DNA of 64,000 nucleotides from a virus. The first letter of the stretch is position 1, and every line of letters begins with the position of its first letter. Below are positions 35,203 to 47,208 of this stretch, piece by piece. Below the pieces are notes generated by a model that ran no database searches, had not been told where the DNA came from, and saw nothing but the letters and a program-made list of their open reading frames with translations. The stretch spans positions 32,001-96,000 of IMG/VR virus record IMGVR_UViG_3300046501_000233. One strand, given 5' to 3'. The translations under genes were made by a program, and so were the position numbers.

Positions 35203-35278
35203 TGGCTGGGAAGGCAGGACTCGAACCTGCGACTCTCTGATTAACAATCAGGCGCTCTACCAACTGAGCTACAACCCA
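35203..35278 (-). tRNA. tRNA-Asn(GTT)
   Basis: 76-nt cloverleaf: TAGCTCAGTTGGTAGAGC D arm, loop TTGTTAA, GGTTCGAGTCC, encoded CCA; two U-U mismatches in acceptor stem. Confidence 0.93.
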
Positions 35279-43126: not shown

Positions 43127-43253
43127 GGCGCCCACATAGCAGCAAATGGCCTTTTAGGCAGCGCCGCGCGACGGTGAACCTCCCGAATAGGGAGGGGTCT
43201 TTTCCAAGGCCACCCCCCTGTTTGTCCCAAATGTGTATACAAATTTGGGACAG

Positions 43254-44021
43254 CTACGCGGACTTGATGGCGGCGACACGCGGGTGCACCTGCGCACCAC
43301 GTCGCAGCGCGACTTCTTTGGCCTCAGCGTTGGCGTTCTTGAGCTGCTGCCTCACCTCGTCGTTGTCGTTGCTGGCCGGCCAACCTATCGCGTGCGGCAG
43401 CGGCGTGTGTGTCGCCAGCGCCAGGGCGACATCGAGCCCGTGCGACTTACCGAATACCGAGAACAGCCGGTGGATGTCGCGGTGGATCCAGCGGATGTTG
43501 CCTTCGCGGTACGGCAGCGTGTCATCCCGCCGGTCGAGCATCGCCGTGCGGGGCATCTTCGGCAGGTCATTGAGCCGCAGCGGCGTGCCAGTCGCCGAGC
43601 ACCGGCCCTTCTGTTCTTCATAGGCGCGTAGCGCCGCGCCGGTGTCGAGGTCGAACACGGCGCCGTGCAGCCGCGCCTGATCACCCATGGCGGCGAATGC
43701 GGCAGGATCGATGCTGACCTCGTCGGCCCGCGATTTCATCTTCAGTTCGTGCGTAGCACGCCGCGCCGCTCGCTCATTGGCGGCATCCCTGTCTCGGGCA
43801 TCGCGCTCGATGGTCACGCAGCCCACGCACTTCAGGCGGCCCCGATCGTATTTGAACTGACCAGGGATGATCCACTGCTCGTGGTCGCAGTCGATGCAGG
43901 CGCACAGCCAAGGGATCGCCTGCCCATTGATGGATGGCTCTACGACAGGGCCGCGGCGCAACGCCAGCCAGCCTCCATAGACCTTGCCTGTGTGATCTTC
44001 GGGTTCTCGGCCGCGGGGCAT
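43254..44021 (-). CDS. HNH-like (His-Me finger) endonuclease, possibly degenerate
   Basis: D.TG..YG.W...WLC.C.DC N-terminus; QKGRC..TG..L, LDR.D....Y..GNIRWI; AGGAG RBS. Confidence 0.7.
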   Translation of the reverse strand: MPRGREPEDHTGKVYGGWLALRRGPVVEPSINGQAIPWLCACIDCDHEQWIIPGQFKYDRGRLKCVGCVTIERDARDRDAANERAARRATHELKMKSRADEVSIDPAAFAAMGDQARLHGAVFDLDTGAALRAYEEQKGRCSATGTPLRLNDLPKMPRTAMLDRRDDTLPYREGNIRWIHRDIHRLFSVFGKSHGLDVALALATHTPLPHAIGWPASNDNDEVRQQLKNANAEAKEVALRRGAQVHPRVAAIKSA

Positions 44022-44149
44022 TTTACTCTCCTGTGAAGCGATGCGCTTGCATTTGCATTATCACAAATGGACACAGGATGCAAGAGGCGGCTCGTAAATG
44101 GTCTTTTGGAGATGCAAAGTTTGGATGTGTTGGCCAACACCGGGGGCCA

Positions 44150-44490
44150 TGTTCAATAAAAAAAACCTCAATGTTATCAACGACTTGCACCTAGGATAAT
44201 GTTCTGAGAAGGCTAGGATGATTTTCACTTTCCTTGATTGTATTCCTGTCAAGAATTGCATTCTCATTTTCACTCACAGTTTCGTGATGCAATTATTTTC
44301 GGGTTCCAAGGGTTCACGGGCAGGAAAATGATAACGAGCGCACGGAATCGTTTTCACTCTCACAAGCCATTGAAATCATTCAACAATCTTTGTCCGAAGG
44401 CGTGCGCTTTTCTCTGATTTCGAATGAAAATGGAATTTGTTCCTGCTCTAAGTCATTGATTTCTCTACTCTTATTATTTTAGCATTTTCA
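44150..44490. promoter_or_regulatory. AT-rich tract with IHF-consensus sites
   Basis: TATCAACGACTTG 44175-44187 and TAAGTCATTGATT 44449-44461 match WATCAANNNNTTR; near match 44363-44375. Confidence 0.65.
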
Positions 44491-44491
44491 T

Positions 44492-44520
44492 TTGCGTTCC
44501 TGTCTGTGTACCCATAGATT
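44492..44520 (+). promoter_or_regulatory. sigma70-like early promoter TTGCGT-N17-TAGATT with AT-rich upstream element
   Basis: Exact 17-bp spacing at the AT-to-GC boundary. Confidence 0.65.
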
Positions 44521-44595
44521 GAATTCAAGAGAGAGACGCGGCGGCCACGGCGGCCACTCTCTAGGGGCAAGCGGTGACGCTTCCCTCCCATCTGC

Positions 44596-45244
44596 GGGAT
44601 AGAGGCTAGGCGAAAGGAGATTGTTCTAGGTTGCTAGGTTGCAAGTATGCAGTAGCGAAAATGAAGTCATGAGCGCCTAGTCGCGTTCCCCCTAGGGGGC
44701 ATGACAGATTGAGTAGTGAGCGAAAGCAATCCGTGCAGTGCAAGGCGGACCAATGGCGGACACGCGCAAGCGTAGGTTTCCGGCGGGATGCAATGAGACT
44801 GGCAGGCAATGGCCTTCAATGGCCACTAGGGCAATCGAGTTTCGCGCGGGCATGAGACGCGGCCGACGACGAGTCGGATGAATACTATCGGAAAGCCCTA
44901 TTCAGTTAGGTAAGCCGGTAGCAACGCGGGCGGACATTACGCCATGAACCTTGTACGGGCAGGTAACCAATCCTGTTTCCATGCATTTCATGCGGCGATC
45001 TATTGCGAGACGATAGACTGCTAGGCCTCTCATGGCGTGGTGCAAACCGTGAAAATCGAAACCCTGTTGCAATGCCAAGCTTTGGGCAATTCGATTTTCT
45101 GACAGGTACAGCGCTCAATTCATAGCTTGACCATAGGCCAAAACGTATCGCTTTCGCCACGCCGTTTGCGTGGGGCTTACGCTTGGAAATGTGGCCATTG
45201 AACTAGCCTTGTCCGACTCCCTGTTTCACAAAAACCCCTATCCC
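44596..45244 (+). ncRNA. large, highly structured non-coding RNA candidate (~650 nt)
   Basis: Nested long-range helices, GNRA tetraloops, candidate pseudoknots, G-U wobbles favouring + strand, no + strand ORF in the track. Confidence 0.78.
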
Positions 45245-45381
45245 TAAGCCAACAGAGTTCGAGCGTCGCTTCAACCCGCGCTCGGACTCTGTCTGTGCTT
45301 TGCCATCTCGGCAAGTCCACACGGTGCATTTGCCCGGATGGCAATCAAGCCATACCGCACACCCAATGGAGTACACTTCCC

Positions 45382-46005
45382 ATGTCTAAGACCACCGCAG
45401 TCAAGGCTACGACTCCGTCTGTCATCACCCTCCTGACCTCGGTCAAGGCGATCGAAACGGCGCTCGATAGCATCAAGAAGCGCGGCGACGAATTGCAGCG
45501 CGATACCCACGTCGCGGCGTGCTCGATCCTCCAGCATGTCGGCAAGCATAAGGACGTGCGCCTCATCACCCGGCTGCTCGACAGCCTGCCCAACATGACG
45601 CGCAAGAATGCCGTCAAGGCATGGTTCGAGGAGTTCGGCCCGGTCGCATTCGACAACGAAGAGGTGCAGTATATCAAGACCGGCAAGACGCGCCTCGGCG
45701 ACGCCATGGGCAACCCGTTCTGGGACTTCCAGCCCGAGAAGCCCTACGTGCCGGTGTCGGTCGAGAAGCTGCTGGCCAGCATGATCAGCAAGCTCACCAA
45801 GGACACCAAGGAAACCGGCGTGCGCCATGACGCGGTTATCCGCGGCCTGACCATGCTCAAGGAAGGCGCTGTGGCTGCCGATACCGTGCAGGCCATGACG
45901 AAGGTTCCGGCACCGCCTGCCACTGTCCCGGCGCCGGCTGCCAAGGACAAGGCCAAGACCACGGTCAAGTCGCTGGCTGACCTCGGACAGGCCATCGCGG
46001 CCTAA
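45382..46005 (+). CDS. conserved early phage protein (first early gene)
   Basis: GGAG RBS; I..SI..RG..L..D.H.AA.S.L.H...H.D..L..RL...P...R.NA...WF..FG; PFWDF.PE. Confidence 0.85.
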   Translation: MSKTTAVKATTPSVITLLTSVKAIETALDSIKKRGDELQRDTHVAACSILQHVGKHKDVRLITRLLDSLPNMTRKNAVKAWFEEFGPVAFDNEEVQYIKTGKTRLGDAMGNPFWDFQPEKPYVPVSVEKLLASMISKLTKDTKETGVRHDAVIRGLTMLKEGAVAADTVQAMTKVPAPPATVPAPAAKDKAKTTVKSLADLGQAIAA

Positions 46006-46075
46006 TCCACCCATCGCCACCCCTGCCGGCAATCCGGTCGGCAGGGATCGACTCTCCCGACGCCAGAGGTGCGCC

Positions 46076-46420
46076 ATGCTCCCATCGCCCAACGTGTTCC
46101 TCCAAGTCCACCACGACGGCGCATGGCTCACCCCTCGCGACAACCACGGCAAGCGGCTGACCTACGTCATGTCGCGGGCTCTGGCGCGTGAGTTCGTCAA
46201 GGCTGGACGCAATGTCCGGCTGGTCTGGATCGAAGGCGGCGCAACCGCTTGGGATCTGCACAACGGCGCCAAGCTCACCCCTCCCCCCTCGCACGTCAAG
46301 GCGAGGCCCCTGCCGGTCATCCGGCTGAAGCATACCCTCGGACGGGTCGGCAAGCTCGACAAGTCCGGCAAGATCGGAAGCTGGCTCGGCCCCATGATGC
46401 GCGGCGCGCCCTCCCTCTAA
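46076..46420 (+). CDS. hypothetical early protein
   Basis: GAGGT RBS in repeated leader. Confidence 0.7.
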   Translation: MLPSPNVFLQVHHDGAWLTPRDNHGKRLTYVMSRALAREFVKAGRNVRLVWIEGGATAWDLHNGAKLTPPPSHVKARPLPVIRLKHTLGRVGKLDKSGKIGSWLGPMMRGAPSL

Positions 46421-46427
46421 TTCCAAT

Positions 46428-46532
46428 CAGGTGACGGTCAGGCGTGAAGGTACGTCCTGATTAACAGGCAATGTGGTCGCAAACGCCGGATGGCTACCAT
46501 GCACGTTCGATCCGTGCCCTGACCGTCACCTG
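46428..46532 (+). ncRNA. tRNA-like structure with 15-bp closing stem
   Basis: CAGGTGACGGTCAGG/CCTGACCGTCACCTG perfect stem stacked on T-arm GCACG-TTCGATC-CGTGC. Confidence 0.7.
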
Positions 46533-46577
46533 CCCCTCTCCGAAACCATCGACTCTCCCAACGCCACAGGTGTGTCC

Positions 46578-46766
46578 ATGATGACCCAGGCTGAAGCACG
46601 TCAACGTCTCTCCATCAACCGCATGTCGCTGCGTCGCTCCCCCGGCGGGGACTGGCGCGTCGCATTCGCCGACATCCGCGATAACGAGGCATCCGCCTAC
46701 TACACGGACGACCTCGAAGACGCGGTCATCACCGGTGCCGATATGCGCCGTCGCAATCGGAGCTGA
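46578..46766 (+). CDS. small hypothetical early protein
   Basis: WRV.F......EA.AYYTDDLEDAV.T pattern; repeated leader. Confidence 0.75.
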   Translation: MMTQAEARQRLSINRMSLRRSPGGDWRVAFADIRDNEASAYYTDDLEDAVITGADMRRRNRS

Positions 46767-46769
46767 CCC

Positions 46770-47208
46770 ATGTCCGCTCAGATCCGCCGCCTCGCGATCG
46801 AGGCAACCATCCTGTCCATCGTCGCAGTCTCCGGCTGGCACTTCGCCGGCTGGCTGCATCAGTTCTGAGATCCGCCATGCGCATTGAACCATTCCGCTCC
46901 GAGGCATCAGCCCAAGCCCTCGCAACACGACTCGAGAAGCTGGGTCGCACTCCCCTCATCGTCACCGGTCCGCCCGATCGGTATGACCGCGTCACCCATT
47001 TCGTGGTATGGTTCGCTCTATGACCAATCCATCGTCTGACGACCTCATCACCAAACGCCGGGAGACCGGCACCGTATCGCTCGACCACCTTATCGGGCAG
47101 ACCGGCTTCCTCGAAGGGAAGCCACGCTCATGGGCCGGTCGTCAGGGTCAGCGCGTGCTGGATGGCTACGAAGCAGCCGAGGCAGAAGCTCTGTCACGCA
47201 AGATGTAG
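46770..47208 (+). CDS. three very small early ORFs (46770-46868, 46877-47023, 47020-47208)
   Basis: Tightly packed, phage-like codon use; first has one TM helix. Confidence 0.5.

Follow-up and report, generated by a model that had tools for sequence, protein, structure and literature searches.

The phage locus analysed here almost certainly encodes a real and new structured RNA, read from the plus strand. The element is non-coding and conserved, has covarying helices on the plus strand, matches no known RNA family, and is linked to the gene downstream of it. As to its kind, it can be classed either as a large structured RNA of phages or as a structured leader of a phage operon. Our preferred reading, to which we give a probability of about one in two, is that this conserved, multi-domain RNA of ~0.8 kb forms the 5′ leader of the rightward phrog_1448 operon and acts in cis. 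The window, i.e., the whole stretch of 64,000 nucleotides that was analysed, had previously been read from its letters alone, and this sequence-only reading had drawn a large multi-helix RNA on the plus strand at 44596-45244. Conservation and covariation bear out such an RNA. Its extent as drawn does not hold, because the comparison of five copies delimits a longer conserved element of ~820 nt (~44527-45346, plus strand).

The window comes from an IMG/VR virus record of 108,080 bp, with terminal repeats at its ends. Its minus-strand half is a myovirus structural module (terminase, portal, sheath, and baseplate hub), and from 45382 onward the genes run on the plus strand. A tyrosine-type integrase domain is encoded outside the window (G000:C1:22618-23064), inside an open frame of 416 aa, and no gene for a T7-type RNA polymerase was found in the record. 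Given the integrase and the copies of the element in Bradyrhizobium assemblies, the phage looks temperate. Expression immediately on infection, as proposed in the sequence-only reading, is therefore an assumption only. The first gene downstream of the element, preceded by a GGAG ribosome-binding site (45368-46005 with the site, gene start at 45382, plus strand), encodes a phrog_1448 protein of 207 aa. The AlphaFold2 model of this protein (pLDDT 72) had no fold match in the PDB and gave no hint of an RNA partner. Homologues of the protein (records H1-H30) are found in many T7-like Rhizobium phages, 0.6-2.7 kb from the record end, and also in Pseudomonas and Acinetobacter podoviruses.

Five diverged copies of the element were compared. 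Besides the window, these are L002, an IMG/VR contig found via its downstream phrog_1448 protein; L012, which lies in a Bradyrhizobium hipponense contig of 144.7 kb and is identical to the provirus L033 of IMG/VR; L015, from a soil metagenome, on a contig of 1.4 kb that is truncated at the 5′ end; and L032, a virus record of 127.6 kb that derives from an isolate genome and was retrieved with a degenerate motif of the RNA. The phrog_1448 gene immediately follows the non-coding region, on the same strand, at each of the five loci. Neighbouring proteins are only ~55% identical among the loci. Within the non-coding region, blocks are identical or nearly so in all copies, and the unpaired blocks are conserved more strongly than the adjoining coding sequence. 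When the window was compared with L002 by nucleotide BLAST (E ≤ 0.01), the matches were blocks of the non-coding region only, and not the neighbouring gene. Because there are only five sequences, two of which (L015 and L032) are 79% alike in DNA, the statistics given below are based on a small number of independent events.

Exact and degenerate motif scans of IMG/VR gave mostly chance or coding matches, the real ones being L002/L004, L032, and L033. A search with model R1 in 151 + 151 + 151 genomes, from the genus, family, and order of the B. hipponense copy, retrieved the known copy only. In the more distant phrog_1448 loci (L013, L014, and L016-L027), the conserved core was absent according to both R1 and a second model, R2. 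As far as searched, the family is small and confined to Bradyrhizobium-associated phages.

No credible ORF was found in the ~1.36 kb between an HNH-like ORF (43254-44021, minus strand) and the gene at 45382. The gap in plus-strand coding noted in the sequence-only reading is thus real, the longest plus-strand ORFs having only 47-48 aa. Between 44530 and 45330, every frame carries 6-14 stops in each of the five homologues, and the substitutions across homologues show no 3-base (codon) periodicity. The GC content falls from ~64% in the flanking genes to 44-55% in the non-coding region. The HNH-like ORF itself encodes 255 aa with weak matches to HNH endonucleases (phrog_3322, E = 2.8e-07), and has a GGAGAG ribosome-binding site ahead of its ATG. 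It has no relatives in IMG/VR or in the homologous loci, and may therefore be a mobile insertion. Two plus-strand ORFs overlapping it (43174-43623 and 43665-44036) are probably spurious.

The element begins with a 5′ terminal hairpin right after the predicted start site (44530-44562, plus strand, as are all parts that follow). This hairpin is seen in four full-length homologues, in which it is stable (-8 to -26 kcal/mol) and unrelated in sequence. Its GC-rich interior (44543-44579, with a tandem GGCGGCCAC) also matches an unrelated metagenomic contig of 1.8 kb. That contig is unlike the window on both sides of the shared stretch, which may be a short dispersed repeat. Next comes a less conserved 5′ domain of ~280 nt (44563-44810), with conserved short blocks and compensated small hairpins. 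Two of these local hairpins, 44673-75/44682-84 and CCCC-CUAG-GGGG at 44688-99, have equivalents at the same positions in homologues. A consensus fold of the 5′ ~280 nt of four sequences yielded no global fold.

The strongly conserved core, of ~540 nt, is made of consecutive stem-loop domains from P1 (44811) to P14 (45344). P1 (44811-44824, GGCC-UUCAAU-GGCC) is a conserved hairpin with one compensated pair, GCCC/GGGC in L032. In the P2 hairpin (44863-44877, CCGAC-GACGA-GUCGG), four of the five pairs are doubly changed, the arms being CGGUU/AACCG in L032 and GUGAC/GUCAC in L012. The P3/P4 stem-loop (44885-44921), with an invariant CCUAUUCAGUUAGG motif, shows the highest conservation of all blocks and provides the core of model R1. 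P3 reads CUAUCGG/CCGGUAG in the window versus GCAUCGG/CCGUUGC in relatives, and P4 is invariant. The long-range helix P5 joins 44935-47 with 45030-42, and CGG at 44931-33 with CCG at 45047-49. Its 13 bp are 100% paired in the five sequences, with 8 doubly compensated pairs and four different complementary sequences. P5 encloses a variable insert (44948-45029) of 82 nt in the window and up to ~165 nt in L012, the flanks of which are conserved.

The P6/P7 stem-loop (45051-45099) carries a conserved apical sequence (45069-45086) on a P6 helix of 7-10 bp with an unrelated sequence in each homologue. Its arms read GAAAAUCGAA/UUCGAUUUUC, CUUCUGG/CCAGAAG, CUAUCG/CGAUAG, CUUUCG/CGAAAG, and GACCGUUG/CAACGGUC. 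Because the sequence differs in every copy, MAFFT misaligns P6. Model R2, trained on two near-identical sequences, scored P6/P7 of the window not above noise, so that in the window this stem-loop rests on direct reading and duplex energy; in the relatives it rests on the R2 alignment as well. The P9 domain (45101-45226) is closed by 45101-06 with 45221-26, a helix which reads GACAGG/CCUGUU, GGCGGG/CCCGCC, GCCGGG/CCCGGC, and GGCGG/CCGCC among the copies. Inside it are a stem of UAG (45123-25) with CUA (45203-05) and a hairpin (45157-62/45168-73). The element ends in two long hairpins. In P13 (45252-45292, ~15 bp), pairing is complete (100%) in all five sequences; 2 pairs are doubly changed and 4 singly, several of them through G-U, and a metagenomic variant, C45260T, also turns one of its pairs into U-G. 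P14 (45300-45344) is irregular and comes from an RNAalifold consensus with compensated pairs, for example CUGCUAUC/GAUAGCAG versus CUCCUAUC/GAUAGGAG. RNAalifold also proposed a long-range pairing of the segment after P1 with that after P13, which we rejected because it clashes with the better supported local P14.

Compensatory changes among the homologues exceed both shuffled and slid controls, and hence the helix covariation named as a check in the sequence-only reading is found. The structure scored comprises 79 pairs in 13 helices on the five-sequence alignment, and was partly derived from this same alignment. In it, 92.1% of the cells are paired, versus 81.1 ± 1.2% in shuffles, and 29 pairs are doubly changed, versus 11.5 ± 2.3 (none of 500 shuffles was as high). 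According to the description of the covariation tool, related sequences can beat shuffles without any structure. Sliding the partners by 1-3 columns preserves the relatedness of the sequences, and this control gave 33-39% of cells paired and 3-7 doubly changed pairs. For P6/P7, in the four relatives aligned to R2, 98% of the cells are paired and 9 of the 13 pairs are doubly changed, which 0-1 of 500 shuffles reached. Duplex energies are -21.6 kcal/mol for P5 and -18.4 kcal/mol for P6 when both arms are taken from the same sequence, versus -10.9 and -9.9 kcal/mol, respectively, across sequences. The long-range helices kept by covariation have arms up to 120-290 nt apart.

By folding energy, the RNA does not stand out. 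The minimum free energy (MFE) of the 649-nt stretch drawn in the sequence-only reading is -234.7 kcal/mol, which is not exceptional on either strand (z = -1.66 on the plus and -2.09 on the minus strand, 20 shuffles). By MFE alone the finding would fail, the MFE z-score being a weak test for long RNAs. The plus strand is favoured by G-U pairs, as had been proposed, with 31 G-U cells versus 9 A-C cells, and two invariant U-G pairs in P5 point in the same direction. Natural variants in rhizosphere metagenomic contigs, which are DNA contigs of metagenomic runs, also fit a plus-strand RNA, since they compensate or create U-G pairs. The public runs that contain the sequence included none of RNA.

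The helices drawn earlier fared unequally under comparison. Their quoted arms are all present where they had been placed, and three local or nested helices were confirmed: ACGCCATGA/TCATGGCGT is part of the 13-bp P5 with its doubly compensated pairs; GAAAATCGAA/TTCGATTTTC is P6, which differs in sequence and keeps its pairing in all five copies; and in the hairpin at 45157-73, the metagenomic variant A45159G + T45171C is compensatory and C45160T gives a wobble pair. The 12-nt inverted repeat 44815-26/45191-202 is exact in the sequence. As a helix, it is specific to the window, being marginal in L032 and no better than shuffles in L002 and L012. The closed architecture of ~650 nt was not sustained, as its closing helices, pseudoknots, and palindrome fail the comparative or the variant test. 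In three runs, 45240 A>T + 45241 T>C disrupt the closing helix GGGATAG/CTATCCC without compensation. AGGCTAG/CTAGCCT, TAGGGC/GCCCTA, and GTAAGCC/GGCTTAC are not conserved, and compete with the conserved local stems P3/P4. Two of the proposed pseudoknots are broken by variants, ATTGAG/CTCAAT by 45115 T>C and GCGAAAGC/GCTTTCGC by 45156 G>A. In the third (CCTGT/ACAGG), comparison pairs ACAGG with 45221-26 in P9 and not with 45063-67. The self-complementary site suggested for oligomerisation, CCCCCTAGGGGG (candidate contact CCCCCUAGGGGG), is a local hairpin, conserved in position and absent in sequence from the homologues.

The element constitutes a new RNA family, for which no relation to any known family was detected. 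At gathering thresholds, cmscan of the whole window returned one tRNA only (35206-35278, minus strand), ~9 kb from the element. At E ≤ 10, the region 44300-45500 gave just four chance-level matches to unrelated families, far below thresholds, so that novelty with respect to Rfam, expected in the sequence-only reading, holds even at this relaxed cutoff. The RNA region of the four homologous loci had no match at E ≤ 5. In particular, the GOLLD model (RF01998) matched neither the window, nor 44300-45500, nor the four homologous loci. The window and the homologous loci (four in each case) also lacked matches to ROOL (RF03087), OLE (RF01071), HEARO (RF02033), and raiA (RF03072), and, among other Rfam models, to group I/II introns, RNase P RNA, tmRNA, riboswitches, and T-boxes. 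ARAGORN found neither tRNA nor tmRNA in 43500-46800, and blastn retrieved no similar sequence from GenBank phages or PLSDB plasmids.

A sigma-70-like promoter candidate, TTGCGT-N17-TAGATT, lies just upstream of the element (44492-44520, plus strand), as the sequence-only reading had pointed out. It has 8 of 12 consensus matches, below the threshold of a simple scan. L032 has TTGCAT-N17-CATATT at the aligned position, with a different spacer sequence, and a promoter-like element is conserved in two of the four copies. Farther upstream, a block of ~75 nt (44095-44169) is 76-79% conserved in L012 (2574-2648) and L032 (5628-5695). Within it, a perfect 14-nt palindrome, GTGTTGGCCAACAC (44127-44140), precedes an A-run, and the block could represent a hairpin, a binding site, or the end of a small gene. 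Membership of GTGTTGGCCAACAC in a family of operators was ruled out, as the window holds no other copy. A direct repeat, TCATTTTCACTCACA/TCGTTTTCACTCTCA (44264-44278 and 44348-44362, 84 nt apart), also lies in the AT-rich stretch that separates the HNH-like ORF from the RNA promoter. It overlaps a minus-strand promoter-like site and may be a binding site of a regulator.

The 3′ end links the element to the operon. Past the two hairpins P13 and P14, 37 nt remain up to the start codon, so that the element borders on the ribosome-binding site; neither hairpin is followed by a U-tract, and no terminator-like site was found between element and gene. We infer co-transcription with the operon because no terminator intervenes, which makes the element, at least initially, the leader of the downstream operon. 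For the same reasons, the discrete non-coding RNA of the sequence-only reading is a possibility only, and the element may be a leader. The roles of decoy, scaffold, or ribozyme suggested in that reading are conjectural.

In the cis-acting leader that we favour, transcription would start at the host-type promoter (44492-44520) and pass through the 5′ hairpin, the variable domain of ~280 nt, the core of ~540 nt, and the closing hairpins P13 and P14. The element would act as RNA at the start of the operon transcript and set the fate of the long transcript downstream, through a modification of the RNA polymerase that transcribes it or through control over its stability and processing. P13 and P14 could be double-strand-specific processing hairpins or 3′-protecting hairpins, and could also release the structured part. 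The identity of several unpaired blocks, despite neighbouring proteins being only ~55% identical, argues for a specific partner which the RNA would have.

Several known leaders of phage operons offer partial parallels. The put RNAs of phage HK022 are cis-acting RNAs of ~70 nt with two stem-loops, which bring about processive antitermination. By analogy, our element would likewise act as RNA in the nascent transcript, with a predicted promoter just upstream and the first gene of a long operon of an apparently temperate phage downstream. With ~800 nt and at least 12 helices it is unlike the put RNAs, and only its position fits a put-like class. The P4 CI RNA and the P1 c4 RNA, of 70-80 nt, are processed from the operon leader of a temperate phage, and act by pairing, over short antisense stretches, with target sites that are repeated within that leader. 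Our element would resemble them in being an RNA embedded in the leader of a temperate-phage operon; pairs of repeats and targets, however, were not found in it. In the T7 group, a long non-coding early leader with RNase III sites lies between host-type promoters and the first early gene. The element is similar in being a long non-coding leader with long hairpins just before a gene, and phrog_1448 homologues hold the position of the first early gene in T7-like phages of Rhizobium, Pseudomonas, and Acinetobacter. However, for the T7 leader we are aware of no multi-domain structure that is conserved and covaries to a comparable degree, and the phage of the element differs from the T7 group as a myovirus of ~108 kb with an integrase and without T7-type RNA polymerase.

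A different reading, which we hold tentatively and consider nearly as likely as the cis-acting leader, is that of a stand-alone, trans-acting ornate RNA, cut out at P13/P14 as a stable species of ~0.75-0.8 kb. The two readings are not exclusive, and the cis-acting one is favoured. The released RNA would bind a host or phage factor, or self-assemble. The element could then possibly be the founding member of a new class of ~0.8-kb ornate RNAs in temperate rhizobial myoviruses, free and trans-acting, which would capture a host machine (RNA polymerase, ribosome, or nuclease) or assemble with itself. The size, the many domains, and the very high conservation of the unpaired blocks fit such an RNA, as does its occurrence in phages and proviruses. 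Known cis-acting antitermination RNAs are about ten times smaller than the element, so that in size it agrees at least equally well with an ornate RNA acting in trans. The stable 5′ hairpin and the two long 3′ hairpins could protect a processed RNA. Against release speak the lack of a terminator, the direct contact with the ribosome-binding site, the lack of similarity to GOLLD, ROOL, OLE, and raiA, and the distance from tRNA genes.

A hint at self-assembly comes from the apical loop of P6/P7, which contains a 6-nt palindrome in every copy. It is GCAUGC in four copies and AAGCUU in the window, where two substitutions remove GCAUGC and create AAGCUU two bases further on. The loop may therefore be a site of loop-loop self-pairing, a weak hint since only two sequence states are seen. 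The estimated chance of a palindrome in a loop of such size is ~15%, and the dimerisation site proposed in the sequence-only reading is not conserved, both of which count against the released RNA.

Both GOLLD and the element are ~0.8 kb long, have many helices, and are encoded by phages or prophages. The arrangement of a conserved 3′ core and a variable 5′ part, known from GOLLD (PMC12286853), recurs in the element. ROOL, found in phages and prophages, is a large structured RNA for which no protein partner is known (PMC12286853), and the element is also a large structured RNA of this setting. The element has no cmscan similarity to either model, as it has none to OLE or raiA. GOLLD and ROOL are often found beside tRNA genes or islands in phages, whereas the element is not, the only tRNA of the window being ~9 kb away and on the other strand. 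The element further differs from GOLLD in lying directly ahead of a protein gene without a terminator and in belonging to Alphaproteobacteria-associated phages, and from ROOL in its architecture, a succession of stem-loop domains in which no pseudoknot has so far found support.

An element working at the DNA level (for example, the site of a genome end or of packaging, an origin of replication, or an attachment region), with hairpins that form in single-stranded DNA or bind proteins, is very improbable as the main explanation. A long, AT-richer non-coding region between gene blocks would suit it, and phrog_1448 genes adjoin the left genome end in T7-type podoviruses. It is also in line with a strong enrichment of CTAG, as 9 of the 32 sites in the window fall within these 800 bases (44530-45330), ~20-fold denser than in the rest of the window; compared to dinucleotide shuffles, CTAG is enriched in all five homologues, mostly as CUAGG. 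However, the covariation is long-range and specific to one strand, tolerating G-U and not A-C, which is unlike duplex DNA sites. Moreover, neither iterons nor arrays of direct repeats occur within the element, and the terminal repeat of the record lies elsewhere. A DNA function overlapping the RNA element is possible. Several of the CTAG copies sit in conserved motifs (GCUAGGCC, AACUAGG). An enrichment of the motif CGGA was dropped, being present in just two homologues.

The least probable reading is that of a functionless conserved leader, with hairpins serving general mRNA stability, or of a covariation artefact of few related sequences, for which speak the five sequences only, the ordinary MFE z-scores, and the ability of related sequences to exceed shuffles, and against which stand the collapse of pairing in the slid control, the four to five entirely different yet complementary sequences of P5 and P6, and the conservation of unpaired blocks above that of the neighbouring coding sequence.

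To our knowledge, large bacterial or phage RNAs with complex folds backed by covariation are few, namely GOLLD, ROOL, OLE, HEARO, raiA, and the classic ribozymes, and we know of no such RNA described before from phages of Alphaproteobacteria, here of Bradyrhizobium. Cryo-EM has shown three of these large RNAs to be RNA-only assemblies (PMC12286853). Each known large ornate RNA has repaid study, and the element adds a candidate from phages of Alphaproteobacteria, with a significance tempered by the small family of five copies. Its position is unusual, as it is the predicted first transcribed part of a long operon, fused to the first gene, and because of this position its role can be tested in a lysogen that is already available from culture collections. 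If the released RNA is the true reading, the element would represent a new class of ornate RNA, unrelated in sequence and fold to GOLLD, ROOL, OLE, and raiA. If the cis-acting leader is true, it would far exceed in size any other such element known from a phage.
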